NCBI GenBank assembly: GCA_964476155.1 | Contig: CAYYYS010000013.1 | Location: 910-64,909, forward strand | Source: an uncultured Fibrobacteraceae bacterium | Lineage (GTDB): Bacteria; Krumholzibacteriota; Krumholzibacteriia; LZORAL124-64-63 | Direction: 5' to 3' | DNA: 64,000 nucleotides | Shown: piece after piece, positions 566 through 38,990 of the stretch | How positions within the stretch are numbered: position 1 is the stretch's first letter | Layout of the letters: every line of letters begins with the position of its first letter | Position numbers and translations under genes: made by a program | Notes under the pieces: model-generated | Database searches by the model: none | What the model was told of the DNA's origin: nothing | The model's input: the letters and a program-made list of their open reading frames with translations, nothing else

Positions 566-609
566 ACTTATCCACACCCACGGTACCACGTGGTACCCCA
601 TTTTTGATG
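566..609 (+). repeat. Intergenic repeat copy A: DnaA box + 16-bp palindrome + TTTTTGATG
   Basis: 44 bp, exact reverse complement of 26144-26187; TTATCCACA at 568-576, GGTACCACGTGGTACC at 582-597. Confidence 0.95.
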
Positions 610-727
610 CGGAGTACGGTCTCTGTCATCACGTGACCCCATAGCCTTGCTGGCGCCATGATGCCAGACGATTGTATAGTGGACCCCGGACTGCATTACC
701 GCACCTCCCGCACCGGAATGGGATTGA

Positions 728-3764: not shown

Positions 3765-5399
3765 ATGTCCAATCCCGCCCAGGGGTTCAGCGAGCTGAAC
3801 CTGTCCGCCCCTCTTGTCCAGGCCGTCACGGAACTGGGTTACGAGAATCCCCTGCCCATCCAGGCGGGCTGCATTCCGCCCCTGCTGGACGGTCAGGACG
3901 TTCTGGGTCTCGCTCAGACCGGAACCGGCAAGACCGGCGCCTTCGCGTTGCCGCTCCTGTCGCGCATCGATCTGTCGCTGAAGAAGCCGCAGGTTATCGT
4001 GCTGACTCCGACCCGCGAGCTGGCCATCCAGGTGGCCGAGGCGTTCCAGGCCTACGCGCGTCACCTGAAGCGTTTTCACGTGCTGCCGATCTACGGTGGT
4101 CAGCACTATTCCTTCCAGTTCAGACAGCTCCATCGCGGTCCCCAGGTGATCGTCGGTACGCCGGGACGAATCCAGGACCACCTGGACCGGGGCACGCTCG
4201 ATCTGAGTGCCATCAAATGCGTGGTGCTGGACGAAGCCGACGAGATGTTGCGCATGGGATTCGTGGACGAGGTCGAGGCCATCGTGTCCCGGGCGCCGGC
4301 GGAGCGACAGACGGCGCTGTTCTCGGCGACGATGCCCACGCAGATCAAGCGCATCACCAAGCGGTACATGAACAAGCCCGTCGAGGTGCGCATCGAGGCC
4401 AAGACCTCGACCGCCGACAATATCGAGCAGGTGTACATGGTCGTGCCCAACTCGGCCAAGTTCCCGGCCCTGTGCCGGATCCTGGAGACCGAGTCCTACG
4501 ACGGGATCCTGATCTTCATGCGCACCCGTCTGGCCACGTCGGGCCTGGCCGAAAAGCTGGCGGCGCGGGGGTTCGACGCCTCGGCGCTCAACGGCGAGAT
4601 GAGCCAGGCGGCCCGTGAGCGGACCGTGCAGCGCCTCAAGAAAGGGAAGCTCGATATCGTGGTTGCCACCGATGTAGCCGCGCGCGGGCTGGATGTGGAT
4701 CGCATCTCCCTGGTGATCAACTACGACATTCCCGGCGACTCCGAGGCCTATATCCACCGTATCGGGCGCACGGGTCGCGTCGGGCGCTACGGCAAGGCGA
4801 TCCTCTTCGCCACGCCGCGCGAACGGCATTTCATGAAGTCCATCGAGCGGGCGACCCGTCAGCCGCTCAACCGCATGGAGATGCCCAGCCACGATACGGT
4901 CACACGCCGGCGCGTCGAAAAATTTCGCGACAACCTGGCTGAGATCATTGCCCAGGAGCCCCAGGAATTTTTCCAGGACCTGAGCTTCGAACTGATGGAC
5001 GACCTGAGCGTCGACACCCTGCAACTGGCCGCCGGGTTGCTGTGCCTGGCGCAGAAGGACCGGCCCCTGCGGGCGGAAGAGAACCGCGCCCTGTCGAATC
5101 CCCACTGGGAGGACAAGAAGCCGCACCGGAAGGAGCGGGGGGGCGGCAAGCGCAAGTCGGCGAACAATCTGGTGCCTTATCGGATCGAAGTGGGATCGAC
5201 GGACGGCGTGGAGATCCGCAACATCGTGGGCGCGATCGCCAACGAGACGGGTCTGCCGAGCCGGTACATCGGGCAGATCCGGATTCACCCCAAGTATTCC
5301 ACGGTCGAATTGCCGGATGAGATGCCGCCGGACATCAGGGAACACCTGAAGAGAACGTATGTCGCGCACAAGGCGATGAAGATTTCGCGGATGCGGTGA
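3765..5399 (+). CDS. deaD: DEAD-box RNA helicase DeaD/CsdA family
   Basis: AQTGTGKT, PTRELA, DEADEM, FSAT, ARGLD, HRIGRTGR; C-terminal DbpA RNA-binding domain (IVGAIANETG). Confidence 0.93.
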   Translation: MSNPAQGFSELNLSAPLVQAVTELGYENPLPIQAGCIPPLLDGQDVLGLAQTGTGKTGAFALPLLSRIDLSLKKPQVIVLTPTRELAIQVAEAFQAYARHLKRFHVLPIYGGQHYSFQFRQLHRGPQVIVGTPGRIQDHLDRGTLDLSAIKCVVLDEADEMLRMGFVDEVEAIVSRAPAERQTALFSATMPTQIKRITKRYMNKPVEVRIEAKTSTADNIEQVYMVVPNSAKFPALCRILETESYDGILIFMRTRLATSGLAEKLAARGFDASALNGEMSQAARERTVQRLKKGKLDIVVATDVAARGLDVDRISLVINYDIPGDSEAYIHRIGRTGRVGRYGKAILFATPRERHFMKSIERATRQPLNRMEMPSHDTVTRRRVEKFRDNLAEIIAQEPQEFFQDLSFELMDDLSVDTLQLAAGLLCLAQKDRPLRAEENRALSNPHWEDKKPHRKERGGGKRKSANNLVPYRIEVGSTDGVEIRNIVGAIANETGLPSRYIGQIRIHPKYSTVELPDEMPPDIREHLKRTYVAHKAMKISRMR

Positions 5400-14224: not shown

Positions 14225-15598
14225 ATGGACGCCTTGGAACCAGAACTCAGCCGCGCCCCCCATCCCGGGCAAAGCGTCCCCGGAAACCGTCTGCCGCCCC
14301 AGAACCAGGACGCCGAGCGTGCGATCCTGGGCGCCGTCATGCTCGACAAGGACGCGCTAGGCATGGCCATGGAGACCATCCAGGTCGAAGACTTCTATCG
14401 CCTGGAGCATCGGCTCGTTTTCCAGGTCATGTGCGAGCTGTACGAGACCGACCAGGCCATCGACGGCATCACCGTCGCCGAAGAACTCGAACGGCGCGCC
14501 CAGCTGCACAAGGCCGGCGGCAACGACTACCTGGCCGACATCCTGGCCGGCACCGCGACGGCCGCCAACGTCACCTACCACGCGCGCATCGTGCGCGACA
14601 AGTCGATCCTGCGCCGGCTGATCTCCGCCAGCAGCGAGATCGCGGGCGACGCCTTCGAGGGCGCCGACGACACCGACACCATCCTCGATACCGCCCAGAC
14701 CAAGATCTACCACATCGCCGAGAACCGGCAGACCCAGTCGTTCTTTTCGGTGAAGGACGTGGTGCCCGAAACCTTCCGCCGCATCGACGAGGCTTCGCGC
14801 CAGAAGGGCGACGTCACCGGCATCGCCACCGGCTTCCAGGAACTGGACCAGCGCACCGCCGGGCTACAGAACTCGGACCTGATCATCCTCGCCGCACGGC
14901 CCTCCATGGGCAAGACAGCCCTCGCTCTGAACATCGCCTACCATGCGGCGGTCAACGAGGGGACGCCGGTCGCCTTCTTCAGCCTGGAAATGGCCAAGGA
15001 GCAGCTGTGCATGCGTCTGATTTGCGCAAGCGGCGGTTTCAACAACCACGACCTGCGCCGCGGTAAGCTCAAGGCGGAGGACTGGCCCAAGCTCACCGAG
15101 GCCTGCAGCCGCCTGTCCGACGCGCCCATCTTCATCGACGATTCGAGTGGTATCTCGGTTCTCGAGATGAAGGCCAAGGCGCGGCGTCTGAAGCAGCAGC
15201 ACGATGTCGGCCTGATCATCATCGACTACATGCAGCTGATGACCAGCACCGCGCGGGCCGAGAACCGCCAGCAGGAAATCTCGGTGATCAGTCGCAACCT
15301 CAAGGGCATGGCCAAGGATCTCGACGTGCCGGTGATGGCCCTGAGCCAGCTTTCGCGCGCGGTGGAGAGCCGTGGCGATCACAAACCGCTGTTAAGTGAT
15401 CTGCGCGAATCGGGTTCGATCGAGCAGGACGCCGATGTAGTGCTTTTCCTGTTCCGCGAGGAATATTATAAGCCCGACGACGATACGGTCCGCAACCGGG
15501 CCACCATCAATATCGGCAAGCAGCGTAACGGGCCTATCGGGCAGTTTGATCTGCACTTCCACAAGGCTTATACGCGGTTCGGGAATTTGCAGCGCTAG
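14225..15598 (+). CDS. dnaB: Replicative DNA helicase
   Basis: PPQNQDAERAILG, AARPSMGKT, FSLEM, IIDYMQL, LSQLSR, SDLRESGSIEQDAD, KQRNGP. Confidence 0.98.
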   Translation: MDALEPELSRAPHPGQSVPGNRLPPQNQDAERAILGAVMLDKDALGMAMETIQVEDFYRLEHRLVFQVMCELYETDQAIDGITVAEELERRAQLHKAGGNDYLADILAGTATAANVTYHARIVRDKSILRRLISASSEIAGDAFEGADDTDTILDTAQTKIYHIAENRQTQSFFSVKDVVPETFRRIDEASRQKGDVTGIATGFQELDQRTAGLQNSDLIILAARPSMGKTALALNIAYHAAVNEGTPVAFFSLEMAKEQLCMRLICASGGFNNHDLRRGKLKAEDWPKLTEACSRLSDAPIFIDDSSGISVLEMKAKARRLKQQHDVGLIIIDYMQLMTSTARAENRQQEISVISRNLKGMAKDLDVPVMALSQLSRAVESRGDHKPLLSDLRESGSIEQDADVVLFLFREEYYKPDDDTVRNRATINIGKQRNGPIGQFDLHFHKAYTRFGNLQR

Positions 15599-15759
15599 TG
15601 CTCTGTCAACCTTTGATCTTGGGCTTGACGAGCCCACAAGCAGCCATCTGCTGCGTTGTACCCGCTTGAATTAGCTACGGCTAGTCCTGCGCTCGTACGC
15701 CTTGCATCTGACTACTTGTGAATTCGTCAAGCCCAAGATCAAAGGTTGACAAAGCACTA
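15596..15759. mobile_element. 164-bp TA-flanked hairpin element (MITE-like), copy 1
   Basis: TA + GTGCTCTGTCAA ... TTGACAAAGCAC + TA; long arm complementarity; 27-nt core identical to 36557-36583. Confidence 0.75.
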
Positions 15760-18288
15760 GATCGAAAACCAATAAGTAAACTTAGCCAACACCCGGTTCG
15801 CGGGTTCCTGCGAAAAGAGCAGCCCCGGGTCGAACTCGTTGGTGAACCCCGGATCGCCATCGCGGAAGTCGTATGAATCGCGGCCGTGGGTCCAGACCAG
15901 GAAGAGCGTCGAGCCCGACCTGTACTCCCAGCGATAGACCAGATTCAGGTTCACCGACGCGTAACTGAAGTCGGCGTCGCTCGGATCGAAGCCGCCCTCT
16001 GTGTACGACGTGAAGTCCCGACTGCCGGGACGCGTCAGTTCCCGCGCGTTGGCGTAGCTGCCCACCGTCAGGAACGGTTGCACGTAGAGTTCGAGCGATT
16101 GGTTGCGGCTGAACAGCAGGCTGCTGCGCAGGGTGCCCTGCCAGGTGCTTTGTTTCAACTCCGCGAAGACATACGCCACGTCGCCGATACCGCCGCCGAT
16201 ATGTTCGAAGTTGCCCAGCCATTGGGCATCGGAGAAGCCTTCCTCATATCCCACATAGACCTGGTGATGGACGCGATCACCCTGCTGCCAGGTCATCCCC
16301 GCTTCGTAGGACCGGTCCCACCAGCCGGAGGCGCCGCCGTCGTTATCGATCTGCAGGTGATAGCGGATGTCTTTGCGATAGTCGGTGCTCACGCCGATCC
16401 AGGTGGCGCGGTTTCGGGACGTCTCCAGGAGTGGTCCGCGGACGCCGTTATGTGAGCGCGTTTCGTAGGAGTTCAATCCCTCGCCATGGACCATGCAACC
16501 GGCGAATATGGTCCAGAACCCGCGGGTCTGCATCATACCGCTCAGGACACTACCCAGGGAGCGGGGGATTCCACTGCTATAGGACCACAAGACCCGGTCC
16601 GGATCGTTCGGGTCGGTTTGTGTGCGACCTGCGTAGAGCCAGCTGCGTCGCATGTAGAGTTGGGCGTGGCCCGATCGCCAGAAGGACGTTTCGTTTTCAG
16701 CATTGTGGGTGTAGGACACCTCGGCCTCGGCTTCGAGCTCGTCCGGCGCGAAGAGCAGGCCGATGTCGTTGGGATCGAGCTGGTCGTGTTCCCATGATCC
16801 TCCGGCCGAGGCGCGCCAGTCGCCGCCGGTCTTGGCGAACTCCAGGGAGCCGCCGGTGCCGCGCTTGTTGGTGGTGCGCGGTTCGGGGTCCAGGAAACCG
16901 GGATGGGGATCGACCAGCGTGTGCACGAAGGACCCGCGGACCTCGTAGTTGCGGTCGGCCAGGTCCCACTCGAAGTCGAGACCGCTGGTGAAGCCGTCGC
17001 GGCGGAAGCGGGTGGGCGTCATGACGAAACTGTCGGGATCGCGCAGCACGGCGGTCTGCATGAAGTTGAAGCGGGCGGTTCCGTCGGGGTTCTCCAGCCC
17101 GCCGCGAAAGATGGCGTAGAAGGCCTGGTCGTTGCCCGCCTCGAAGACGTTGTGGGCGCGGCCCGGCGTGGTGATGTCCGTAAACGCGATCAGGCCGGCG
17201 AGCGACAGGCCGCCGCCGGTCTTGCCGGTGAGCTTGCTCGCCAGGCGGATGCGCGCGTTCTCGTCGCCGGTGCCGATCCGGCGCGAATAGAACAGGTTGA
17301 AGTCCGGATGCTCGAAGTACCGCGCGCCCTCCACGAAGAAGGGGCGCTTTTCCTCGTAGTAGGTCTCGTAGGGGGTGAGGTTCAGTTGGGCGGGGTCGGC
17401 CTCCACCTGGCCGAAGTCGGGCTGGATGGTGGCGTTGAGGGTGATGTTGGCGGTCAGGCCGTACTTGATGTCCGCGCCCAGACTCTGGAAGTGCTGCACG
17501 TCGTCGTCGGGACCGGCGATGGCGGGATCGGTCAGGCTTTGCACCACGTAGGGCGTCACTTCGAGCTGGCGGGGGCTGCCCAGTCCCGACAGGCCGTTCA
17601 GGGTGCCGAAACGGCTGACGAAGCCGCTCAACTCGCGCTCGTAGCACACCCAGCCGGTGTCTTCGCCGCGGCCGTGTAGCCAGCGGTAGACCTGCAGGCC
17701 CCAGGTCTGTTCGTCGCCGGCGCGGAAGCGGATCGACGAGAAGGGGATGCGAAATTCGGCATACCAGCCGTGTGAGTCGGTGCTGGTCTCCACTTGCCAG
17801 ACGGCGTCCCAGTTCCAGTCGCGGCGACCGTCGTCGAACATGTAGGCGTCGGCGACCACGCCATGGAGGTTGGTGCGGAAGTTGTAACCGGTCGTGCGGT
17901 CATGGTAGGGGTCGATGTAGATGCTGATTATGTCGGAATTGTGGATGTCGTCCCGGCGCGACAGGGCACTCGAGACCAGGGACATGTCCGCTTCGGGACA
18001 GTCGACGCCGAAGTAGATGGCATCATCGTCGTACACGACCCTGAAGGTGGTCTGGACGCTGGGTTCGCCGCCGCGCTCGGGGTCGAACTGGCGAAAATCG
18101 CCGCCTTCCTGCGCGCCTTCCCAGGCGGAATCGTGAAGGTGACCGTCGACCCGGATCGACCCGTTGGGGACCCGCTCCGCGTAGATGTTGCGGTGGGGTG
18201 TGTAGATCGGCGCCGGCCCGTCGTCGGCGGTACCGAAGGTCGGGATGAGCAGGGCGACGAGGAGAAATGTCGCGGCGGCAGTGCGCAT
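15757..18288 (-). CDS. CBM9-like/DUF5916 outer-membrane protein
   Basis: Signal peptide; IRVDGHLHDSAW, AEFRIPFSSIRF, PDFGQVEAD, EEKRPFFVEG, LFYSRRIG; aromatic C-terminus FTYWFSI. Confidence 0.8.
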   Translation of the reverse strand: MRTAAATFLLVALLIPTFGTADDGPAPIYTPHRNIYAERVPNGSIRVDGHLHDSAWEGAQEGGDFRQFDPERGGEPSVQTTFRVVYDDDAIYFGVDCPEADMSLVSSALSRRDDIHNSDIISIYIDPYHDRTTGYNFRTNLHGVVADAYMFDDGRRDWNWDAVWQVETSTDSHGWYAEFRIPFSSIRFRAGDEQTWGLQVYRWLHGRGEDTGWVCYERELSGFVSRFGTLNGLSGLGSPRQLEVTPYVVQSLTDPAIAGPDDDVQHFQSLGADIKYGLTANITLNATIQPDFGQVEADPAQLNLTPYETYYEEKRPFFVEGARYFEHPDFNLFYSRRIGTGDENARIRLASKLTGKTGGGLSLAGLIAFTDITTPGRAHNVFEAGNDQAFYAIFRGGLENPDGTARFNFMQTAVLRDPDSFVMTPTRFRRDGFTSGLDFEWDLADRNYEVRGSFVHTLVDPHPGFLDPEPRTTNKRGTGGSLEFAKTGGDWRASAGGSWEHDQLDPNDIGLLFAPDELEAEAEVSYTHNAENETSFWRSGHAQLYMRRSWLYAGRTQTDPNDPDRVLWSYSSGIPRSLGSVLSGMMQTRGFWTIFAGCMVHGEGLNSYETRSHNGVRGPLLETSRNRATWIGVSTDYRKDIRYHLQIDNDGGASGWWDRSYEAGMTWQQGDRVHHQVYVGYEEGFSDAQWLGNFEHIGGGIGDVAYVFAELKQSTWQGTLRSSLLFSRNQSLELYVQPFLTVGSYANARELTRPGSRDFTSYTEGGFDPSDADFSYASVNLNLVYRWEYRSGSTLFLVWTHGRDSYDFRDGDPGFTNEFDPGLLFSQEPANRVLAKFTYWFSI

Positions 18289-21093: not shown

Positions 21094-23247
21094 TCACCGC
21101 ACCAAAGACAGCTTGCGTGACACGGTGCGTCCCGCCGAAGTGATCCTCACCAGGTAGGCACCGCTCGACGCCGACCGTCCGGCATCGTCGCGCCCGTCCC
21201 ACACGAGCGTGTGCGTTCCCGGCTCATAGGCCAAACCGGCGGCCAGGCTCCGTACACGGCGCCCGGCGGTCGACCAGACGGTCACGTCAACCGGTGCGGC
21301 GGCGTCCAGTGTGAAGCGGATCTCCGCGCGGGGGTTGCCCGGGTTGGGGTACACCGCGAGGTTGAAGGCGGCGGCCGGCGCCTCGCCGACGGCCACGTTC
21401 GTGTCCAGGTTCAGCCAGATGGGATTGGTGTAGGCCCGGTGGCCGGCGTCGCCGTCGGTGGTGACGCATTCGGCCCGCAAGGCGCACCAGCCCAGGGGCA
21501 GCACGCCGGCCAGATCCAGCGACGCGTTGCCGGCCAGGCCCTGGCCCTGGCCCGATGGCGCCAGGCTCAGCAGCGAGATCTTGTTTCCCGGTTCCAGCAG
21601 CCACACGGTGACCGATGCGATTTCCCCGAACTCCGGCAGCGAAGCCCAGCGCAGGCGCAGTGTGCCGGGGTGGTCGGGGTGCGCGAGGACGTCGCCACCG
21701 ATGGCCGTGTCGTTCGCGTCGTACCAGTCGCCGTCGTTGTCGCCGTCCAGCCCGATTTCCAGGAATGGGCCGTCGGTAACGACCGAGCGGCCGGCCGTGA
21801 AGGCGGCCAGCAGGTCGACGGTGGGCGGCACCTCGCCGGACCGCGCGCCGGGGACGTAAACCACCGTTTGCACCTTGCCCATGGCGTTGTCATCGGCGTA
21901 GTCGTCCACGCTCATGTGACTGGAGAAGTTGAAATCGCCGTGGGCATCGCTGCCGCCGGAGAGGAAGAGCTTGCGTGGCGAACCGGAGGCCAGGTCGGTC
22001 TGCAGCAGGTCATCCCACAGGGCGATGCCGGTCAGCAGGCCGTTGGGGTATGGATCGTCGGACGGGTTGCCGGCGTCGAAGTCGCTCCAGGGGTCGTACT
22101 GGTCGGTGGAGTAGACCGTGCGGCGTGTGTTGAAGACCTCCACACCGCGGAAGGACGGTCGGGTGAGAGCCGCGACCAGGTCTTCGTCGCCCCAGACCGC
22201 GCCGTTGATGCCCCAGTCGTAGCCCAGGACTTCGGCACTCAGATCGTCGATGGGATGGGCCGCGTAGGCGAAGCCGCCGCCGAGGGCGTCGAGGCCGCCG
22301 GTCACCGATGGTGACACGGGACGCTCGCCCGGCGCGCCCGAGTCGGGGGAATGGACGTAGGGGCCGTCGTAGAAGAGGCAGTGCAGGGTCTTTTCCCAGG
22401 AATCCCCGTCCACCGACGCCAGATTGATTTCCACGCCACGGTGGAGCCGGAAGTCACTGTCGGAAAGCAGGGCGGCATCCACGCCCAGAGCTCCCCAGGC
22501 GCCGCCCTCGGCGACCACGTCGCGGTAGGTCGTATGAATGCCGGTCTCGTCCTGCAGGGTCCATTCCCATTGCCCGGTGGCGTAGGAGTAGTCGCCGTCG
22601 CCGGTCTCGTCCAGGTCGCAGCTGTGGTCGGTGGCGGTCAGCCAGTGCAGCCCCATGGCCACGGCGGTCTCGCGGACCGCGGGCAAGGGGGCGCCCCACT
22701 CGTAGATGTTGTTGGTGAACATGGTGTGGTAGTGGGTGTCGCCGCCGAACCAGTCGTCGGGCCAGGGGAAGGGGCCGCTGCCCACGTGCACGCGCAGGGT
22801 GCGCGATTCCGTGTAGTTGAACCAGTCGTCGCGATAGTAGACCTGTACCTCGATCTGGATGGCGTCGCCGGCCCCGTAGCCCAGGTTGGCGGGGGTCAGG
22901 AGCGTGCCGTTCGGCAGGGAGGGGTGGCCTTCGGTCACCTTGGTGATCCAGGTCCAGTAGTTGTCTTCGCTGGCGTCGTTGCCGATGGTCTCGTCGCCGT
23001 AATCGTGATTCCAGATCAGTGTTGAGCCGGCGGTGACGTCCCAGGCGCGGATCCAGTGCAGGTCACGGATATCGTCTACGTCGCAGTCCTTGAGGATGAC
23101 CGTCAACGGGATGGGGGTCTGGGCGTCGATCACTCGCCAGGGGGCATCCATGATGAAGTCCTTGGCGAGCGTGTTTTCGTATTTGTCCGATGCGGGGACG
23201 GCGGTTGACAAGAGCAGCAGGGCGATACATATCAGGGGCTTGTTCAC
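21094..23247 (-). CDS. Secreted PHP-family (CehA/McbA-like) metallohydrolase with FlgD/T9SS-like C-terminal domain
   Basis: Signal peptide; GDTHYHT, ATDH, GGSDAH; tail YPNPGNP...VWDGRDDAG...SGAY...RKLSLVR. Confidence 0.78.
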   Translation of the reverse strand: MNKPLICIALLLLSTAVPASDKYENTLAKDFIMDAPWRVIDAQTPIPLTVILKDCDVDDIRDLHWIRAWDVTAGSTLIWNHDYGDETIGNDASEDNYWTWITKVTEGHPSLPNGTLLTPANLGYGAGDAIQIEVQVYYRDDWFNYTESRTLRVHVGSGPFPWPDDWFGGDTHYHTMFTNNIYEWGAPLPAVRETAVAMGLHWLTATDHSCDLDETGDGDYSYATGQWEWTLQDETGIHTTYRDVVAEGGAWGALGVDAALLSDSDFRLHRGVEINLASVDGDSWEKTLHCLFYDGPYVHSPDSGAPGERPVSPSVTGGLDALGGGFAYAAHPIDDLSAEVLGYDWGINGAVWGDEDLVAALTRPSFRGVEVFNTRRTVYSTDQYDPWSDFDAGNPSDDPYPNGLLTGIALWDDLLQTDLASGSPRKLFLSGGSDAHGDFNFSSHMSVDDYADDNAMGKVQTVVYVPGARSGEVPPTVDLLAAFTAGRSVVTDGPFLEIGLDGDNDGDWYDANDTAIGGDVLAHPDHPGTLRLRWASLPEFGEIASVTVWLLEPGNKISLLSLAPSGQGQGLAGNASLDLAGVLPLGWCALRAECVTTDGDAGHRAYTNPIWLNLDTNVAVGEAPAAAFNLAVYPNPGNPRAEIRFTLDAAAPVDVTVWSTAGRRVRSLAAGLAYEPGTHTLVWDGRDDAGRSASSGAYLVRITSAGRTVSRKLSLVR

Positions 23248-26051: not shown

Positions 26052-26066
26052 GCGATCGATTGGCCA

Positions 26067-26187
26067 CCCACATCACCCTGGGGTGATGTGGGCGCAAAGT
26101 CATATCAAAAACAGGGCCTCTGGGGGCCGCAGGCAGCACTTCACATCAAAAATGGGGTACCACGTGGTACCGTGGGTGTGGATAAGT
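26067..26187 (-). repeat. Intergenic repeat copy B (DnaA box + palindrome + extra module + 12-bp hairpin)
   Basis: 26144-26187 is the exact reverse complement of 566-609; hairpin CCCACATCACCC-TG-GGGTGATGTGGG at 26067-26092 is shared with copy C. Confidence 0.93.
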
Positions 26188-26274: not shown

Positions 26275-28488
26275 ATGAGACGACTAGTATTGCTCCTGCT
26301 CACCAATCTCATATTCGTAACCCTCTCCGCAGCCGGCGACTTCACCACCGGTGAGACCAGCATCACCCGCCTCTCCGACGACGAACGCGCGGTCATTCTC
26401 GGCGGCTTTCGTTTCCCCACAGGACCGGTTTCCGTGCGCGATTATCCCCGAGTCGGCTCCCTACCGCCCGCCCTCGACTGGCGTGACACACCAATCGGTT
26501 CCTACGTCAGCGACGTGCGTTGGCAGGGAGTTTGCGGCTCGTGTTGGGCCTTCACCGCCATGGCAGCTTTCGAATCGGCGCTGATGGTCGCCACCGACAC
26601 GCCGGACGTCGATCCCGACCTGTCCGAACAGTACATCCTGTCCTGCAACTGGGACGCGGGTACCTGCCAAGGCGGTTGGCTGGAAGGCGCGCTCGAATTC
26701 CTGCGACTGGCCGGCGCGCCGACCGAAGCCTGCTTCGTCTATATGGGGAACGATCAGATCCCCTGTCGCACGAGTTGCCACACGACCCTGGACCTGCTCG
26801 AGAAGGTCGATGACTGGTGGTTCGTCACCGCCGGATTTGCAGACCAGGTTGCCATCAAGACCGCCCTGCAGGACGGTCCGCTGTCGACGGCCTTGATGAT
26901 CCACGACAATTTCATGGGCTACACAGGGGGCATCTACGATGCCTACGGCAGTCCAGAAACCGGCGACGGCCACACCCTGCTGCTGGTGGGATACGACGAC
27001 ACCCAACAATGCTGGATCGCCAAGAACAGCTGGGGCACGGATTGGGGCGAGGACGGATTCTGTCGCATCGCCTACGACGACGGCTGCGGTTTCGCGGCCT
27101 ACACGCTGGCTTGTACCTACGATCCGCTATGGGAACCGAGCGTCGCCTGGTCACCGGCCGAGATCAACGCCGGCGAGCCTGTCGCCATCACTTACGATGC
27201 CACCGGTCGGCCCCTGCAGGGCCTCGGCGGCCTCCTGATCCACTCGGGCCACGACGACTGGGAGGGCATCACCGACACGCCCCTGACCCAGACGGATACG
27301 GACAACTGGTCGGTCACGATCACGCCGCCGATCGGGGCGCAGTCGCTGGAGTTCGTCTTCACCGACGGGCTCGACACCTGGGACAACAACGGCGGTGTCG
27401 ACTGGATCGTGCCCTTGGCCGGTTCCACGCCCGACTTTGTCATGGATGGATTGTTGGACGCGGTCGCGACACCCCTGGCGACAAACGGCACGCTGACCTT
27501 ATGGAGCGCATTCGCCGGGTCCGAGCTCTACGTGGCCATCCAGGATGAGAGAGTTCCGCGCACCGAAGATCTTTTCATCCTGGTGGCGACCGATCCCTAC
27601 GAATATCGCCCGGCTACCTGGGCCAAGGCCGGCAGCACGATGAACTGGGACTGGTTCCTGGCCGCCGAAGTCGACAACGGCTGGTCCGGCTGGTTCGATT
27701 TCGGGGAGACCGTGCAGGAGGGCGCCGCGTACCGGCGATCCAACGGGGATGTTCTCGAAGGGACGCTCGACCTCGATATTCTGATGCCGGGGCGCGCGCC
27801 CCGGGAGCTATGGTTCGCCGCGGCCGCCTACGAAACCCACAGCGGTGGTACCCTGATGCGCCAGGCGCCCGCCGGCAACAGCGACAACACGATCACGGAA
27901 TCGGAGATGATTCGCGAGGTCATCGTGGCGAACGAGCGGGTCTTGTTGGATGTGCGTCGCACGAGTGTCGGTGTGGAGATCGCCTGGGTCTTGGCCGAGC
28001 CCATGGTCGGCGAATTGAGTCTGACCGCCGCGGCTGGTGAGACCGGCTGGCTGGTTCCCTATATCACGGACGACGGTCTGCATTACTACGGCGAAGACCG
28101 TTCGGCCGCGGCACGCGGCGGTGTCGTGATCACCTATCGCCTTCAGGGCCGACGTTACGACGGCACCTCATATCTGCTGGCGGAGGGGGACACGCCAGGA
28201 CGGGGCACGGGGGCGCTGCGTCTCGATCCCGTCTTCCCCAATCCGGCCAACCCGGGCCTGGACGTTTGTTTTACTCTGGCCGTTCCCGGTCGGGTCACCT
28301 TACGCATTCTCGATGCGCGCGGACGTCTGGTGAACACGCTATTGGACGAACCACGCTCGGTCGGCGCCCATGCCGTGAGCTGGGATGGTCGGACGCATGA
28401 CGGGGTGCCCGCGGCCTCGGGCGTTTATTTCGCGCAGGTCTTGAGCGGTGATTTTACGCAGACACGCAAGCTGACGCTGGCCCGGTGA
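26275..28488 (+). CDS. Secreted papain-family (C1A) cysteine peptidase with starch-binding-like modules and FlgD/T9SS-like tail
   Basis: QGVCGSCWAF, GHTLLLVGY, WIAKNSWG; WDNNGGVDW CBM-like motif; FPNPANP...WDGR...SGVYF...RKLTLAR. Confidence 0.85.
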   Translation: MRRLVLLLLTNLIFVTLSAAGDFTTGETSITRLSDDERAVILGGFRFPTGPVSVRDYPRVGSLPPALDWRDTPIGSYVSDVRWQGVCGSCWAFTAMAAFESALMVATDTPDVDPDLSEQYILSCNWDAGTCQGGWLEGALEFLRLAGAPTEACFVYMGNDQIPCRTSCHTTLDLLEKVDDWWFVTAGFADQVAIKTALQDGPLSTALMIHDNFMGYTGGIYDAYGSPETGDGHTLLLVGYDDTQQCWIAKNSWGTDWGEDGFCRIAYDDGCGFAAYTLACTYDPLWEPSVAWSPAEINAGEPVAITYDATGRPLQGLGGLLIHSGHDDWEGITDTPLTQTDTDNWSVTITPPIGAQSLEFVFTDGLDTWDNNGGVDWIVPLAGSTPDFVMDGLLDAVATPLATNGTLTLWSAFAGSELYVAIQDERVPRTEDLFILVATDPYEYRPATWAKAGSTMNWDWFLAAEVDNGWSGWFDFGETVQEGAAYRRSNGDVLEGTLDLDILMPGRAPRELWFAAAAYETHSGGTLMRQAPAGNSDNTITESEMIREVIVANERVLLDVRRTSVGVEIAWVLAEPMVGELSLTAAAGETGWLVPYITDDGLHYYGEDRSAAARGGVVITYRLQGRRYDGTSYLLAEGDTPGRGTGALRLDPVFPNPANPGLDVCFTLAVPGRVTLRILDARGRLVNTLLDEPRSVGAHAVSWDGRTHDGVPAASGVYFAQVLSGDFTQTRKLTLAR

Positions 28489-32695: not shown

Positions 32696-35600
32696 ATGCA
32701 TCGTCATATCCGCTTATGTGCCGCCATGCTGTTCGTTCTCATGATCGGTCCGGCCCTGCCGGTCGCTGCCGCCGACCAGCCGACGGTCACTTCCTATCTC
32801 GAACGCGCCCTCGACGACGCAACCTATCCCCATCGCGACGATGCCGGCCGTCTGGCCGTATGGGTCTACTTCCGCGACAAGGGCCTTGACGGTGCGGCTC
32901 TGGGCGCCGCCCTGGACCAGGCCGAGACCGACCTGTCAGACCGCGCCGCCCGCCGGCGCGCCAAGATGAAAACGGTCAAGGGCGAGCGGCTGGTCGACAG
33001 CACCGACCTGCACGTACACCGTTCCTACATAGACGCCGTCGCGGCGACCGGCGCCCATCCGCGCCGCGAAAGCCGCTGGCTCAACGCGGCCAGCTTCGAC
33101 GCCACCTCCGCGCAGATTGCGGCCATCGCCACCCTGCCGCAGGTCATCAAGGTCGACCTGGTGAACATGTTCCGTCGCGACGAGATGGCCGTGTTACCCG
33201 AGGACGTGGCCGCCCGCGAGGCCCGCAACGCCGAACTGCGCGCCGCCAAGGCCACCGCCTGGACCGTCGACTACGGCGGCAACCTGGCCGCCATGGAGCA
33301 GGTCAACGTGCCGGCCCTGCACGACGAGGGCGTGACCGGCGAGGGCGTGCTGATCGGCATGCTCGACACGGGCTTCCGCACCTCGCATAACGCGCTGACG
33401 CCCATCCCGATCATCGCCGAGTGGGACTTCATCAACAACGACGGCGAGGTGGACAACGAGGCCGGCGATCCCAGCAACTCCAACGATCACGGCACCAAGA
33501 CCATGTCCACGGCCATGGGCTACGAGCCCGGTCAACACGTGGCGCCGGCCTTCGGTGCCTCGGTCGTGCTGGCCAAGACCGAGGACGTGTCCCAGGAGAT
33601 CCCCATCGAGGAGGACAACTGGGTTGCGGGCATCGAGTGGCTCGACACCTTCGGCATCGACGTGGCCAGCAGCTCGTTGGGCTACCTCGACTGGTTCACC
33701 TGGGCCGACATGGACGGCAACACCGCCGCCTGCACCATCGCCGCGGACCTGGCCGTGGGCAAAGGCATCGTGGTCTGCAACTCAGCCGGCAACGAACGCG
33801 GCTCGAGCTGGAACCACATCATCGCGCCCGCCGACGGCGACAGCGTGATCGCCGTGGGCGCGGTTACTTCCAGCGGCAGCTATTCCTACTTCTCTTCGCC
33901 CGGTCCGAGTTATGACGGGCGCATCAAGCCCGACGTCTGCGCCCTGGGTTCGAGCAACCACGTGGTGAGCTCCACCAGCGATACGGCCTACACGTCGGCT
34001 TCGGGCACGTCTTTCTCCTGTCCGCTGACCGCGGGCGTGGCCGCGCTGGTTCTTTCGCGCGTGCCGTCGCTGACCCCCATGCAGGTGCGCGACGCCCTGC
34101 GCGAGACCGCCTCGCAGGCGACGACGCCGAACAACGACTACGGCTGGGGCATTATCGACGCCCACGCCGCGGCCCATTATTTCGGCGCCAACATCGTCCA
34201 CGACTCCCTGTCCGACACCGAGGACACGACCGGCCCCTACACCGTGACCTGCACCATCACCGATCGGGTCGCCCTCGACACCGATCATCTTTTCCTCAAC
34301 TGGCGTATCGATGGTGGCGGGTGGTTCAGCGAGTTGCTGAGTTCCCTGGGCGGCGACGACTACGCGGCGTCGATTACCGGCCAACCCGCCGGCACCGACG
34401 TGGAGTACTACTTGTCGGCTCTCGACGCTTTGGCCATCACCTCGACCCTGCCCCTGGACGCTCCCGTGTCGGCCTTCGCCTTTCACGTGGGGCCCGACGT
34501 CTCCGCTCCCGTGGTCACGCACCAGCCCCTGGGCGATCTGCCTCTGTTGACCTGGCCGGGAACGCTGAACGTCACCGCCGTCGACAACATCGGTATCGCC
34601 TCTGTTGTCGTGTCCTTTGACCACAACGGTGTGCCCCAGCCCGATTTCCCCCTGGTCGACCAGGGCGACGACCTCTACCTGGCCGACATCCCGGTGCTGG
34701 TGGAGCAGGTGCAGGCCGGCGACACGTTCACCTATTCGATCCTGGTGACCGACATGGGCACGGTGCCCAACACCGTCACGGTCGGTCCCTTCTCCCTCAT
34801 CGTCATCGACGCCCTGGGCGTGGTCCTGGTGATCAACGACAGCGCCGGCAAGGGAGATCCCGAGCCCAAACTAGGCATCGACAAGAGGCCGCTGCCGGCG
34901 CCGACGAAGACCCAGAAGGCTCCGGCCAACGACATCGAACGCTGGCTGAACGAAACGGGCTACGTGGTCACGCTGGTGGACGCCGCGTCCCTCCAGGCCA
35001 CGGACTTCGACAACAAGCAGTTCGCCATACTCTCTTCCGGCGACAACCTCTCGCCCGTGGCCGGCGCCGGCCTGCGCACCCTGGTGCGCGATTGGGTCCT
35101 GGCCGGCGGCAAGTTGTTCATAGAAGGCGGCGAAACGGGCTACGATGCCGAGTCGTCGCCGGGCTATCCCGGTTTCGCGGCCGACGTGCTGCATGTGTCC
35201 GACTGGCGCAGCGACAGCGCGGGCGACCTGCAGGTCGTTGCGGGCATGGGCGGACATTCGTTGCTCAACACGCCCCACGTCGTCCCCGCAACCCTCGATA
35301 TTACTTATGGCAATTACGGCGATCAGGACGCCATGGATCCGTCCCTCGACGCCTACATGGTGATGGAGACGGCGAACTACACGGGCGCGGGTGGCATCAT
35401 CGTCTTCGACGACAATCCGGCGCCCCAGTCGGCCCAGGTCGTCAACTTCTGCTTCAACCTGGCGGCCGTGGCCGACACCACCGTGGCGCGGCATCTGGTC
35501 GAGAACGCGGCGGCTTTCCTGATGGCGTCCGAGGGCGTGCCGACCGCGTCGATATCCGGTATGGTCGCCATGCTGTCCGGCGACGTCGTCTTTCCTGTCG

Positions 35601-36490
35601 AAGGCGCACTCGTCAGCGCCGGCGCCGGCCTGGAGACGCTTACCAACCAGGACGGCTACTACATCCTGGATAATCTCTACTCCGGCACCTACCAGCTGGT
35701 CGCCAGCAAGGCGACCTACACGACCGTCACCGAGACGATCGAGGTCGGGGAGGGGGAAGCCGCCTACCTGGATTTCTGGCTCGATCCCACCACGACCGTC
35801 GAGTACACCGAGAGTACGCCGATCGCCATCCCGGACAGCGACGCGAACGGCATCACTTCGATCATCACTGTCGCGGAAACCAATGCTGTCTCGGCCGTGT
35901 CCGTGCCCATCGACATCACCCACACCTGGATCGGCGATCTGATCGCCGAGTTGACCTCGCCCCTGGGCACCACCGTGCGCCTGCACAATCGCACAGGCAG
36001 TTCGTCGGACGACATCCTCGGCATCTACGGCGACACTCTCGTTCCCGACGGACCGGGCGTCCTGCTCGACTTCACGGGCGAGAACCCGGCCGGCGACTGG
36101 ACCCTGTTCATCTCGGACAACGTCGGCTCGGATACCGGCACGCTCAACAGTTGGGGTCTCATCCTCGTTCTGCCCGACCCGAACACGGCTGTCGACGACG
36201 CCACGCCCCTGGTCACGCGCCTGCTGGGCAACACGCCCAACCCGTTCAATCCGCGCACGGTGATCGCCTTCGACCTGTCGCGGGCGACGGCACCACGCCT
36301 GTCCGTCTTCGACCTGCGCGGCCGCGAAGTGCGCCGCCTGCTCGACGGGCAGACCCTGACGGCCGGCCGACACCAGGTCGTATGGGACGGTCGCGACGGC
36401 ACGGGCCGCGCCCTGGCGAGCGGACTCTACCTGTATCGCTTCAGGGCCGATGGGGTGACCGAGGAAAGGAAGATGTTGCTGACGCGGTAG
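32696..36490 (+). CDS. Secreted S8 (subtilisin-like) serine peptidase with P-domain and FlgD/T9SS-like tail
   Basis: Triad LDTG, DHGT, GTSFSCP; P-domain DITHTWIGDL...GDWTLFISD; tail PNPFNP...VWDGRD...SGLY...RKMLLTR. Confidence 0.92.
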   Translation: MHRHIRLCAAMLFVLMIGPALPVAAADQPTVTSYLERALDDATYPHRDDAGRLAVWVYFRDKGLDGAALGAALDQAETDLSDRAARRRAKMKTVKGERLVDSTDLHVHRSYIDAVAATGAHPRRESRWLNAASFDATSAQIAAIATLPQVIKVDLVNMFRRDEMAVLPEDVAAREARNAELRAAKATAWTVDYGGNLAAMEQVNVPALHDEGVTGEGVLIGMLDTGFRTSHNALTPIPIIAEWDFINNDGEVDNEAGDPSNSNDHGTKTMSTAMGYEPGQHVAPAFGASVVLAKTEDVSQEIPIEEDNWVAGIEWLDTFGIDVASSSLGYLDWFTWADMDGNTAACTIAADLAVGKGIVVCNSAGNERGSSWNHIIAPADGDSVIAVGAVTSSGSYSYFSSPGPSYDGRIKPDVCALGSSNHVVSSTSDTAYTSASGTSFSCPLTAGVAALVLSRVPSLTPMQVRDALRETASQATTPNNDYGWGIIDAHAAAHYFGANIVHDSLSDTEDTTGPYTVTCTITDRVALDTDHLFLNWRIDGGGWFSELLSSLGGDDYAASITGQPAGTDVEYYLSALDALAITSTLPLDAPVSAFAFHVGPDVSAPVVTHQPLGDLPLLTWPGTLNVTAVDNIGIASVVVSFDHNGVPQPDFPLVDQGDDLYLADIPVLVEQVQAGDTFTYSILVTDMGTVPNTVTVGPFSLIVIDALGVVLVINDSAGKGDPEPKLGIDKRPLPAPTKTQKAPANDIERWLNETGYVVTLVDAASLQATDFDNKQFAILSSGDNLSPVAGAGLRTLVRDWVLAGGKLFIEGGETGYDAESSPGYPGFAADVLHVSDWRSDSAGDLQVVAGMGGHSLLNTPHVVPATLDITYGNYGDQDAMDPSLDAYMVMETANYTGAGGIIVFDDNPAPQSAQVVNFCFNLAAVADTTVARHLVENAAAFLMASEGVPTASISGMVAMLSGDVVFPVEGALVSAGAGLETLTNQDGYYILDNLYSGTYQLVASKATYTTVTETIEVGEGEAAYLDFWLDPTTTVEYTESTPIAIPDSDANGITSIITVAETNAVSAVSVPIDITHTWIGDLIAELTSPLGTTVRLHNRTGSSSDDILGIYGDTLVPDGPGVLLDFTGENPAGDWTLFISDNVGSDTGTLNSWGLILVLPDPNTAVDDATPLVTRLLGNTPNPFNPRTVIAFDLSRATAPRLSVFDLRGREVRRLLDGQTLTAGRHQVVWDGRDGTGRALASGLYLYRFRADGVTEERKMLLTR

Positions 36491-36651
36491 TGCTCTGTCA
36501 AACAGGAAATTGGGGGTTGGCGGGCTCACGAGCGGCCATCTGCGGCGTTGCACTCCCTTGAATTAGCTACGGCTAGTCCTGCGGTCGCGCGTCTTGCATC
36601 TGAGCACTCGTGAGCCCGCCAACCCCCAATTTCCTGTTTGACAGAACACTA
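36488..36651. mobile_element. 164-bp TA-flanked hairpin element (MITE-like), copy 2
   Basis: TA + GTGCTCTGTCAA ... TTGACAGAACAC + TA; about 43-bp stem with one mismatch; same length and core as 15596-15759. Confidence 0.75.
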
Positions 36652-36683
36652 GCGCCTCGCGACTGGTCCGAGTTGATATCCAG

Positions 36684-36711
36684 AAGCGCCGGGTCCCTGG
36701 ACCCGGCGCTT
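36684..36711. terminator. GC-rich hairpin between convergent S8 and mazF genes
   Basis: AAGCGCCGGGTCC-CT-GGACCCGGCGCTT; only short T runs. Confidence 0.4.
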
Positions 36712-36716
36712 GGTGG

Positions 36717-36792
36717 TTATCCACATCCACGGCCCCACGTGGGACCCCGTTTTTGATGTGGGGTGCTTGCCCACATCACCCAGGGGTGATGT
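36717..36792 (+). repeat. Intergenic repeat copy C (diverged)
   Basis: TTATCCACA 36717-36725, GGCCCCACGTGGGACC 36731-36746, TTTTTGATGTG, CCCACATCACC hairpin 36770-36792. Confidence 0.88.
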
Positions 36793-36814
36793 AGCCTGCT
36801 GATCATATGGTTGG

Positions 36815-37165
36815 TCAGATCGTCAGGGAGAGGGATTGGCGAAGACCCTGGTCGATTCGAGACATGGTTGTAGATGACAAGCGCTTGACTTTTTCTGTCA
36901 GACGACGCTTGTCGACCGTCATCAGTTGGGTGACGTTGGCGACGGATGGGCGCGGCAGTCCGCTTTCCCTGCGGTTGATGCGTATGTTGCCGGGTGCGTT
37001 TTCCCTGGACAGGTTGGTGGTCAGCACGACCAGGAAAACGGTACCCAAGCGGCTGAGATTGTAGGCGTCCGCCGAAACCACGACGGCTGGTCGACGGAAC
37101 CCGGGTTCCGAGCCGCTTGGTGTGGGTAGGTCCGCCCACCAGATTTCCCCCCGTTTTATTGCCAA
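36815..37165 (-). CDS. mazF: MazF/PemK-family toxin
   Basis: KRGEIWWADL, GSEPGFRRPAVVVS, SGLPRPSVANVTQLMTVDK; TTG start. Confidence 0.93.
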   Translation of the reverse strand: MAIKRGEIWWADLPTPSGSEPGFRRPAVVVSADAYNLSRLGTVFLVVLTTNLSRENAPGNIRINRRESGLPRPSVANVTQLMTVDKRRLTEKVKRLSSTTMSRIDQGLRQSLSLTI

Positions 37166-37401
37166 TCGTCCGGCTCCAATGCTTCAGCCTGGAGCGCAAT
37201 CCAGAATGGATCGAGCCTACTCGATTCCGGATCGTCCCCGTAGACACGGTTCAAAGCATCTGTAATCGCCTGTTGCCCCTCTCTTTCGAGGTAGGCCGCC
37301 ATGGCGCGCTGATAGAGCCTGCTGCGGCTGATGCCCAGGAGCTGCGCCAGCTGTTCGGCATCCTCGAAGAGGGTATCCGGTATGGAAATCGCAGTTTTCA
37401 T
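37156..37401 (-). CDS. Ribbon-helix-helix antitoxin (ChpI/MazE-like)
   Basis: MKTAISIPDTLF...GISRSRLY; upstream of and overlapping mazF. Confidence 0.88.
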   Translation of the reverse strand: MKTAISIPDTLFEDAEQLAQLLGISRSRLYQRAMAAYLEREGQQAITDALNRVYGDDPESSRLDPFWIALQAEALEPDDWQ

Positions 37402-37407
37402 GCCTAG

Positions 37408-37436
37408 AGTATAACTCAAGTTATACCTCCCGTCAA
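37408..37436 (-). promoter_or_regulatory. Toxin-antitoxin promoter with overlapping operator palindrome
   Basis: TTGACG, 17-bp spacer, TATACT on the minus strand; inverted repeat GTATAAC-N4-GTTATAC at 37409-37426. Confidence 0.75.
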
Positions 37437-37506
37437 TCCGTGTGGAGCCACACAAGCAAACCCCGTGCGTGAATCTTGCTCAGTCGTCTTTTGCTCGGTC
37501 CCCCCT

Positions 37507-37562: not shown

Positions 37563-38990
37563 ATGGCCAAGCAGACCACGCGTTACGTTTGCGGCAATTG
37601 CGGACACGATGAAGTTCGCTGGATGGGGCAATGCCCCCAGTGTCACGAATGGAACGCCATGACAGAAATCAAGCTGGGCAAGGTCGAAGGCAAGGGCCGC
37701 GGCACCGGTTTCGCCCGCGGACGGCCCAAGCGGACCGACACCGAGGCCGTGCAGCCGGTTTCCCTGGCCGATATCACCTCGGCGAGCCGCGACCGTCTGT
37801 CGGTCGAGCCGGAGGAGATCGCCCGCGTGCTGGGTGGCGGACTGGTGGTCGGTTCGGTGGTGCTGTTGGGTGGCGAGCCCGGCGTGGGCAAGTCGACGCT
37901 GCTGACCGGTCTGGCCCTGAGTTGGGTGAGCCAGGGTGTTCGTGTGCTCTATGTGGCGGGAGAGGAGTCGCCGCCGCAGATCCGCATACGCGCCGAGCGG
38001 CTCGGTTTCGACGCCAAGCGGACCGACGGCTTCCACATCCTGAACGAAGTCGACCTGGAAAAACTGTTGGCGGCCCTGTACGCCGATCGGGAGGCCCACC
38101 CCGGGCCGGTCGTGCTGATCGCCGATTCCATCCAGACCCTGCACAGCTCCGAGATCGACGCCTTCCCCGGCAGTGTCAGCCAGATCCGCTATTGCGGCGG
38201 CGTGCTGGCCAACTTCGCGCGATCATCGGGATGTCCAGTCTTCCTGGTGGGACACGTCACCAAGAGCGGCGACCTGGCGGGACCCAAGCTCCTCGAACAC
38301 ATGGTCGATACGGTTCTCTACTTCGAAGGTGACGGCGGCGGACCCGTGCGCATGGTCCGCGCGGTAAAAAACCGCTTCGGCGCCACCGGCGAGCTGGCCA
38401 TTCTGGAGATGCGCGGCGAGGGGTTGGTGCCGGTGGACGAGGCCGGCGCGCTGTTCCTGAGCGGACGGCGCGGCGAGGAACCCGGGGCCGCGGTGTGCGC
38501 GGTTCGCAACGGGTCACGCACTTTCCTGGTGGAAGTGCAGGCCCTGGTGTCTCCCACGCGTTACGGCACCCCCCAACGGGTGGTCCAGGGCGTGGACAGC
38601 AAGCGGGTGGCCCTGCTGGCGGCCATTCTCGAAAAGCGCGCGGGACTGGACCTGGCCGGCTGCGACATCTTCGTCAAGGTGGCCGGCGGAGCGCGCCTCG
38701 ATGATCCCGGCGCCGACCTGGCCATCGTCACGGCCCTGGCGTCGTCGCTGCGCGAGATCCCGGTGCCCATGGACACGCTGGTCATGGGCGAGGTCGGCCT
38801 GACCGGAGACGTTCGCGGCGTGAGCGATCGCTCGGGACGATTGCGCGAGGCGTCCCGTCACGGCTTCAAGCGCGCCGTGATCGCGCGGGTCAAGCCCGAC
38901 CGCAAGACCGAACAGGGTGTGGCCGTGACCGCCGTGACCACCGTCGACGAGGCGGTGGCCCTGGCCCTAGCCCGGATTATTCATGACTGA
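37563..38990 (+). CDS. radA: DNA repair protein RadA/Sms
   Basis: CGNCG...CPQCHEW zinc finger, GGEPGVGKST, DSIQT, KNRFG; last 6 codons come from the downstream hairpin element. Confidence 0.97.
   Translation: MAKQTTRYVCGNCGHDEVRWMGQCPQCHEWNAMTEIKLGKVEGKGRGTGFARGRPKRTDTEAVQPVSLADITSASRDRLSVEPEEIARVLGGGLVVGSVVLLGGEPGVGKSTLLTGLALSWVSQGVRVLYVAGEESPPQIRIRAERLGFDAKRTDGFHILNEVDLEKLLAALYADREAHPGPVVLIADSIQTLHSSEIDAFPGSVSQIRYCGGVLANFARSSGCPVFLVGHVTKSGDLAGPKLLEHMVDTVLYFEGDGGGPVRMVRAVKNRFGATGELAILEMRGEGLVPVDEAGALFLSGRRGEEPGAAVCAVRNGSRTFLVEVQALVSPTRYGTPQRVVQGVDSKRVALLAAILEKRAGLDLAGCDIFVKVAGGARLDDPGADLAIVTALASSLREIPVPMDTLVMGEVGLTGDVRGVSDRSGRLREASRHGFKRAVIARVKPDRKTEQGVAVTAVTTVDEAVALALARIIHD

Follow-up and report, generated by a model that had tools for sequence, protein, structure and literature searches.

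A mosaic, hairpin-forming intergenic repeat of an uncultivated marine bacterium contains both a parS-like palindrome and a perfect DnaA box

Pfam searches of the stretch of DNA analysed here (64,000 nucleotides, hereafter the window) recognise murA, selB, ispG, deaD, a gene for an NFACT protein, yicC, gmk, coaBC, udg and dnaB, together with mlaEFD, genes for C1 and S8 peptidases with FlgD_ig-type C-termini, and mazEF. They also recognise radA, ispD, a 2-oxoacid:ferredoxin oxidoreductase, a GlnD-like protein, aroA, aroC and tyrS. The 9.3 kb to the left of the window contain rho, rpmE, prfA and prmC. The named homologues of SelB and MlaD are from Krumholzibacteria, with about 57-63% identity. 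No transposase, Y1/HUH gene or integrase was found among the Pfam matches in the window, which also contains no tRNA or tmRNA gene. The MazF/PemK-like toxin gene (36815-37165) lies within a minus-strand pair at 36815-37455 that adjoins radA, and the small partner ORF upstream of the toxin gene (37156-37455, minus strand) has no Pfam match.

Three spacers between these genes share a short sequence, described in the first-pass annotation as a three-copy 44-bp repeat that couples a perfect DnaA box to a parS-like palindrome. All three sites are present in the sequence, copy A at 566-609 on the plus strand (ACTTATCCACACCCACGGTACCACGTGGTACCCCATTTTTGATG), copy B at 26144-26187 on the minus strand and copy C at 36717-36759 on the plus strand. 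Copies A and B are exact reverse complements over 44 bp, and their similarity extends to 57 nucleotides at 91%; copy C is diverged. The arrangement of box and palindrome is real. The pattern TTATCCACA-N5-GGNNCCACGTGGNNCC matches just these three sites of the window when up to three mismatches are allowed, and none of 100 dinucleotide-preserving shuffles of the window has any match, so that no such copy would be expected by chance. Each of the three perfect TTATCCACA boxes in the 64 kb lies inside copy A, B or C. The palindrome is symmetric in A and B as claimed, but that of copy C is imperfect, with half-sites GGCCCCAC and GGTCCCAC. The repeated unit is longer than 44 bp, is modular and has more than three copies. 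The 44-mer is the core, here called M1, of a dispersed, mosaic and hairpin-forming family of intergenic repeats (Table 1).

Table 1. Copies of the repeat in the window and the modules of which they are composed
Feature	Position	Strand	Remarks
Copy A, M1	566..617	+	Present in 10 of 10 assemblies carrying an identical SelB
Copy A, parts of M1	box TTATCCACA 568-576; palindrome GGTACCACGTGGTACC 582-597; then CCATTTTT, GATGCGGAGTAC	+	
Copy A, A-type 3' tail (CGGAGTACGGTCTCTGTCATCACG)	610..633	+	Common to at least one paralog elsewhere in the genome
Copy B, M1	26136..26187	-	Box 26177-26185, palindrome 26156-26171; flagged as terminator-like by a generic scan
Copy B, M2 (TGCCTGCGGCCCCCAGAGGCCCTGTTTTTGATATG)	26101..26135	-	Decayed tandem M1 hairpin with T-run; 3-5 times flank depth
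Copy B, M3 hairpin (CCCACATCACCC-CA-GGGTGATGTGGG)	26067..26092	-	Perfect
Copy B, tail from M3 to the mlaD stop	26052..26066	-	Related to the GCCTGCTAGTCGATC tail of other full-length copies
Copy C, X: GC-rich hairpin GCGCCGGGTCC-CTG-GACCCGGCGC, then TTGGTGG	36675..36716	+	Directly 5' of TTATCCACA
Copy C, M1 with variant palindrome GGCCCCACGTGGGACC (36731-36746)	36717..36766	+	Convergent spacer
Copy C, M3 (CCCACATCACCCAGGGGTGATGT) and tail AGCCTGCTGATCA	36770..36805	+	M2 absent from copy C

M1 is about 45-57 nucleotides long, and the aligned copies give the consensus GG-TTATCCACA-YCCAC-GGTACCACGTGGTACC-CCR-TTTTT-GATGYGGRGTGC. Around it are found four optional modules, X, M2, M3 and a tail. M2 (...CCCACGGCCCCCCRGGTGACCC-TRTTTTTGAT) aligns with M1 as a decayed tandem duplicate, which is clearest in locus L009. 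M3 is a perfect hairpin, CCCACATCACCC-NN-GGGTGATGTGGG, and the shared tail module reads GCCTGCTAGTNGATC. Module X, found in copy C and in loci L006 and L025, is an upstream GC-rich hairpin, GCRCCGGGTCC-YWG-GRCCCGGCGC, whose TTNKTGG tail leads straight into TTATCCACA. The modules are combined differently among copies, as in the mosaics of REP/BIME elements: copy A consists of M1 and its own tail, copy B of M1-M2-M3-tail and copy C of X-M1-M3-tail. In a paralog at a contig end, TTATCCACA is joined to an M2-type hairpin that lacks CACGTG; thus, the coupling of box and palindrome is not obligatory. The 5' end of the element is sharp, at GG|TTATCCACA, and the 3' end is variable. Neither a recognisable target-site duplication nor clean terminal inverted repeats could be defined from the aligned copies and the spacers of relatives. 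Over the tail of copy A, depth at 616-637 is still 2-4.5 times that of the flank, and a paralogous contig matches 595-632.

Further members of the family were sought in two scans. A pattern scan of species-representative genomes returned one further copy, L001, in a metagenome-assembled genome labelled uncultured Fibrobacteraceae. A scan of metagenome contigs returned nine contigs, all from a single assembly (JACKQG01), of which two correspond to copies B and C of the window and seven are new loci. In total, 11 loci with distinct copies are known, ten from the same marine metagenome population and one in the related genome. A covariance model built from ten copies detected no additional copy in the window or in the fetched loci, and the 9.3 kb left of the window also contain none. 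One of the new loci, L007, is doubtful as a copy from the same genome: the NFACT-R-domain protein next to it (L007 2-268) is just 39% identical to the product of the NFACT gene of the window. L007 may be the locus of a paralog or may come from a different organism in the same metagenome.

Four marine metagenome runs contain 100% of the sampled words of the window, and copy number was estimated from the contigs of these runs that align to copies A and B at 80% likeness or more (26-32 contigs per run). The summed word depth is about 40-44 in the flanks, 1600-2040 over the palindrome, about 1500 over the box and 830-1300 on the T-run side, and just 130-230 (3-5 times the flank) over M2 and M3. 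Since the depth of the box is about 74% of that of the core, most copies carry the box. Core depth is 35-48 times flank depth when contigs are summed, and the individual contigs are at about the depth of the flank, which places the copies in one and the same population. As a copy number, the raw ratio (35-48) was discarded, since it is an overcount: contigs overlap by k-1 inside the repeat. At copy A, for example, the left contig extends to 595, the right one starts at 580, and the 42-nucleotide contig that they share has a depth of 134. With an overlap correction factor of 2-3 and the number of contigs per run, we infer about 13-18 copies per genome. The ten copies from the population of the window would therefore be most of the family. 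A stretch of 36 kb contains three of the roughly 15 copies, a tighter grouping than expected of a uniform scatter.

All 11 loci are intergenic, none is between divergent genes, and every copy adjoins the 3' end of a gene; the copies have spread to about 15 intergenic sites beside gene 3' ends. The T-run strand has the sense of the upstream gene at 9 of the 11 loci, and the stop codon of that gene is 0-95 nucleotides away, or farther where further hairpin modules intervene. Copy A begins 22 nucleotides past the murA stop (TGA, 542-544) and has the same sense as murA and selB. Among the seven loci between co-directional genes, the T-run strand is in the sense of the genes at five (copy A, L005, L008, L009 and L010) and is opposed to both neighbouring genes at two (copy B and L001), each of which has M1-M2-M3. 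At copy B, M1 is antisense to two plus-strand genes, mlaD and the C1 peptidase gene. Convergent spacers contain copy C (between the S8 peptidase gene on the plus strand and mazF on the minus strand), L003 and L007, and L006 is at a contig end. The interval between copies A and B was considered as a 25.6-kb island bounded by inverted repeats, and this was rejected: the genes of the interval are ordinary housekeeping genes, also syntenic in relatives, and include neither a transposase nor an integrase.

Alternatively, the palindrome, which is perfect over 16 bp, centres on CACGTG and recurs at more than ten loci, could be an operator through which a dimeric transcription factor governs a regulon. 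However, the copies follow stop codons or lie in convergent spacers, never in divergent promoter regions, and their neighbours (murA/selB, mlaD/peptidase, a recQ-like gene, asparagine synthase, an ECF sigma factor, an SSF transporter and others) have no function in common. In addition, identity of 90-100% over long flanks indicates that a unit was copied rather than that sites converged. An operator is therefore an extremely improbable explanation.

We also noticed that many large secreted proteins, the C1 and S8 peptidases among them, end in a FlgD_ig/Por_Secre_tail-like domain. Their genes are at 21094-23247, 26275-28488 and 32696-36490 of the window and also at L003, L005, L009 and L010, and several M1 copies directly follow such genes. 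As judged from their domains, these tails fit a host of the FCB group, related to Krumholzibacteria, with a putative type IX-like secretion system.

M1 can fold as one long imperfect hairpin. The inner stem, GGTACC-ACGT-GGTACC with an ACGT loop, is the "parS-like" palindrome, and in the outer stem TCCACAYC, the 3' two-thirds of the "DnaA box", pairs with GATGYGGR. CCR-TTTTT follows the inner stem when the strand is read with TTATCCACA first, and on this strand X and M2 are also hairpins followed by T-rich runs; the tail of M3 is not T-rich. The inner stem occurs as GGTACC..GGTACC, as the fully compensated GGTCCC..GGGACC (L025) and as GGCCCC..GGGACC (copy C and L009). In L003 (CCGGGGTACC..GGTACCCCGG) and L008 (CCACGGTACC..GGTACCGTGG), perfect stems of 10-12 bp have been reached via two different compensatory routes. 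On the TTATCCACA-first strand, 78% of the cells of the named structure are paired, compared with 30-58% in slid controls. Variation in M1 thus preserves base pairing, through compensatory or G·U-type changes.

On the opposite strand, 89% of the cells are paired, and the 8-bp inner helix is paired in 100%. The gap between 89% and 78% is due to the polymorphic pairs, most of which alternate between Watson-Crick and G·U pairing on the opposite strand; eight such pairs favour the strand opposite the T-run and two favour the T-run strand. This wobble asymmetry is no more than suggestive, as it comes from few independent events among related copies. The predicted fold of copy A is also more stable on the strand opposite the T-run (-22.8 kcal/mol) than on the T-run strand (-17 kcal/mol).

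These strand differences could be explained if M1 were a structured RNA on the CAUCAAAAA...UGUGGAUAA strand, either part of a small RNA or a signal that acts in cis on stability or processing, and not a terminator or a DNA repeat. Metatranscriptome contigs that span copy B and continue into the downstream peptidase gene, which is sense on that strand, are also consistent with such an RNA, but these contigs are unstranded and possibly include DNA. Furthermore, this strand is antisense to the adjoining gene end at 9 of the 11 loci. No sigma-70 promoter-like site was found in 25.8-37.4 kb of the window, and by eye there is no convincing Bacteroidetes-type -33/-7 element near TTTG. Rfam gave no match at gathering score in the whole window and, around copy B, none even at E≤10 except a chance miRNA match. 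Together with the small number of events behind the eight-to-two asymmetry, these results make a structured RNA unlikely.

The TTATCCACA-first strand carries the stem-loop and U-run of an intrinsic terminator, namely a 6-bp stem (10-12 bp in L003 and L008), CCR and then U5. On this strand M1 looks like an intrinsic terminator, which by its predicted structure would be weak by usual standards, with a spacer of three nucleotides before U5. Like intrinsic terminators, M1 combines a G+C-rich stem-loop with a T-run, lies 0-95 nucleotides past stop codons at most loci and can be followed by tandem modules. It differs from them in that an identical 45-nucleotide sequence is reused at many genes, in its short stem and its spacer, and in the orientation of copy B and L001, which face against both neighbours.

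The distribution of the repeat among relatives was then compared with its distribution in the window. Strains about 97% alike retain copies B and C, with contigs that break within the palindrome, and copy A is retained in all ten assemblies with an identical SelB. No empty site was found among these close strains (about 97% alike; same-species assemblies). In a relative with 92% MlaD identity, a full-length X-M1-M2-M3-tail follows mlaD in the position and orientation of copy B. By contrast, about 95 kb of syntenic DNA in relatives at 84% and 80% (SelB) and 83% and 75% (MlaD) identity contain no copy: their murA-selB spacer lacks the repeat, and mlaD is directly followed by another gene. At the two loci compared, the spacers of these relatives (75-84%) are too diverged to define a clean empty site. 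Presence at 92% and absence at 75-84% identity indicate that the repeat family is young and lineage-specific. An origin of the repeat from a phage or plasmid was also considered and set aside, as no viral contig or plasmid matches it.

Two further features of the murA-selB spacer were observed. Upstream of selB, at 643-682 of the window, is a promoter-like AGCCTTGCTGG-N-GATTGTATAGTGG, and AGCCTTGCTGG...GATTGTATAGTGG is the sole conserved part of this spacer in L011 and L014, from relatives with 80-84% SelB identity. In L014 (9880-9930; SelB identity 80%), the final 19 nucleotides of murA with its stop (CCCGGCGCCGGGGCCGTAG) are tandemly duplicated at the place where the window has copy A.

The first-pass annotation offered two explanations for the coupling of the motifs, a composite site for DnaA and a ParB-family protein with altered specificity, or a small repeat that carries both motifs. 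The latter is supported by the related copies, the contig depth, the counts of paired positions, the orthologous copy in the relative and the covariance-model search. The former is disfavoured by what the sequence contains. No dnaA, dnaN, parA or parB was found in the window and the approximately 9 kb to its left (73 kb), and cumulative GC skew, which climbs from 0.04 to 0.48 across the greater part of the window, has no lasting change of sign. The copies outside the window are on short contigs. There is no cluster of boxes of the kind found at oriC: each copy has one box, the copies are 10.5 and 25.6 kb apart, and the 64 kb contain just five relaxed DnaA boxes. An AT-rich unwinding element is not seen either, as GC content in 2-kb windows is never below 0.596.

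The perfect TTATCCACA could still be a DnaA-binding site on its own, in which case the family would be a set of dispersed DnaA-titration or DnaA-regulated sites. TTATCCACA is invariant in the recovered copies, though it was part of the search pattern, and the ratio of box depth to core depth is in line with its retention. About nine perfect boxes are estimated to occur by chance in a genome of about 4 Mb with 64% GC, and the family would more than double this number. However, TCCACA is accounted for as the outer-stem arm that pairs with GATGTG, and TTAT as the end of the T-rich run that follows X. No box is present in the orthologous spacers of relatives, and single boxes 10-25 kb apart, with no AT-rich element, dnaA or dnaN nearby, do not resemble an origin. 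We regard this role for DnaA as very unlikely.

A second possibility is that a ParB-family protein with shifted specificity, either the centromere-binding ParB or a Noc-like paralog, binds the palindrome and that the repeat just carries its site. The symmetric match of the palindrome to TGTTCCACGTGGAACA at 12 of 16 positions, noted in the first-pass annotation, is arithmetically correct, and the central CCACGTGG is identical in the two. The parS consensus is TGTTNCACGTGAAACA (TGTTTCAC-GTGAAACA), and bases G1 and A6 separate parS from the Noc site, NBS (PMC7383237). The half-site GGTACCAC of the palindrome retains the parS-type G1 and A6. Canonical parS has no significant match in the window (one 3-mismatch match is at chance level) and no exact match in 24 fetched loci, which counts in favour of a ParB-family site. 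In some bacteria, parS clusters or NBS/SBS sites are present in numbers comparable to the approximately 15 copies, three of them within 36 kb, seen here.

Several results argue against binding by such a protein. GGTACCACGTGGTACC has four mismatches to TGTTNCACGTGAAACA, two per half-site, where one or two in all would be tolerated for parS, and the palindromes of copy C and L025 diverge further. Positions 2-3 of the half-site differ among copies of the same genome, and the two half-sites of copy C are unlike each other. The changes preserve pairing or wobble rather than one half-site, and the stems of L003 and L008 exceed 16 bp, as expected of a folded strand and not of a fixed dimer site. All copies are intergenic and are embedded in 45-135 nucleotides of conserved flank, and the 73 kb contain neither parAB nor origin genes. 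In the paralog at the contig end, a hairpin without CACGTG takes the place of the palindrome, and no recurrent 16-bp palindrome or parS-like cluster was found in the syntenic regions of the relatives at 75-84%. ParB-family binding is, in our assessment, decidedly improbable. As far as can be judged from sequence, binding of the host DnaA or ParB at the copies is hypothetical and unlikely. The combined form, in which the repeat would be a vehicle that spreads a high-affinity DnaA box together with a parS-derived palindrome for a shifted ParB- or Noc-like protein, the three-copy cluster being origin-proximal, is given only a very small probability. If it were true, a mobile hairpin element would carry and multiply chromosome-organisation or DnaA-titration sites; and binding of either DnaA or a ParB-family protein would make this a repeat element that distributes chromosome-maintenance sites.

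The repeat was further compared with known classes of elements. Like REP, BIME and REPIN sequences, it consists of short imperfect palindromes (20-60 nucleotides) that fold as hairpins and are lineage-specific. As with REP/BIME, the copies are dispersed (11 loci), strictly extragenic, placed beside gene 3' ends and in convergent spacers, and form mosaics with other short modules that may serve as 3' hairpins of transcripts. It differs from REP/BIME in having about 15 copies instead of hundreds, in lacking a GTAG-type 5' tetranucleotide (the 5' flank of M1 is CCAC, GTGG on the other strand), and in the T-run that its hairpins carry on one strand. RAYT, the Y1 transposase that partners REP, is also absent from the window. 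The resemblance to MITE-like elements, such as the Correia elements of Neisseria and the pneumococcal BOX and RUP, lies in a non-coding modular unit of 50-150 nucleotides (compare boxA, boxB and boxC) that is intergenic, loses or duplicates internal modules and is able to alter transcript ends; unlike these, the M1 family has no clear terminal inverted repeats, target-site duplications or known parent IS. With parS and NBS it shares a 16-bp palindrome, the same central CCACGTGG, the parS-type G1/A6 and a number of sites per genome in the tens or fewer, and it differs in its two mismatches per half-site, in the unlike half-sites of some copies, and in that M1 is always part of a longer intergenic repeat, is not kept in the syntenic DNA of relatives and has no parAB nearby. 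We found no paper that reports the palindrome, REP-like repeats bearing DnaA boxes, or such repeats in the FCB-group lineage of the host. M1 and its modules make up a new family of small hairpin repeats in intergenic DNA, probably of a kind already known (REP/BIME or MITE-like), in a poorly known lineage where it is new.

Taken together, the three sites probably belong to a mosaic repeat of REP/BIME or MITE type that occupies intergenic DNA and is specific to the lineage of its host, an uncultivated marine bacterium related to Krumholzibacteria. The repeat might have been spread by a trans-acting enzyme that acts on the folded single strand, or by recombination. The copies probably persist because their position is harmless and because a hairpin with a U-run can end or stabilise the upstream transcript. 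The resemblances to a DnaA box and to parS would then have arisen incidentally from the stem arms and from the T-rich tail of the module before them, and not as a site designed for two proteins. The manner of spread, the presumed effect on transcripts and the choice of functional strand are inferred. Some observations do not fit easily with this explanation. The window encodes no mobilising enzyme, target-site duplications and clean terminal inverted repeats are not seen, and close strains have no empty site. The wobble variation, which favours the strand opposite the T-run, argues against a pure terminator role. The predicted terminator is weak, and copy B and L001 are oriented against their genes. 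The presence of 3 of about 15 copies in 36 kb and the retention of G1/A6 also count against the explanation.

A REP/BIME- or MITE-type repeat has consequences for annotation, in that these sites should not be named oriC or parS. It also bears on assembly, since metagenome contigs break at the repeat, and the copies are usable as markers for strain typing. The case also shows how sequences that match a DnaA box perfectly or resemble parS can arise within the arms of a hairpin.

Other inverted repeats are present in the window. A second, unrelated repeat family consists of hairpin elements of about 170 nucleotides, with arms of 57-63 nucleotides (86-87% complementarity) around a centre like GCCGTAGCTnnGGCTACGGC. 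Copies are found at 15592-15760 and 36481-36658 of the window and at about 4935-5100 and about 470-560 of L015. Each element starts where the gene upstream of it (dnaB, the S8 peptidase gene or rho) has its stop codon, and the ends are CTAGTGCT...AGCACTAG. In the runs of relatives, bins over 36481-36658 and the M1 of copy C are at about 6-13 times flank depth, an excess that is partly due to copy C. Right after radA, at 38968-39148, is a nested inverted repeat with inner arms of 32 nucleotides (38999-39030 and 39085-39116); its outer arms, 25 nucleotides long and perfect, include the last codons of radA and the stop, repeated in inverted orientation. Another nested inverted repeat, a large one at 57749-58022 between a matE-like gene (minus strand) and aroA (plus strand), has arms of 65 nucleotides (85% complementarity) and of 31 nucleotides (97%).
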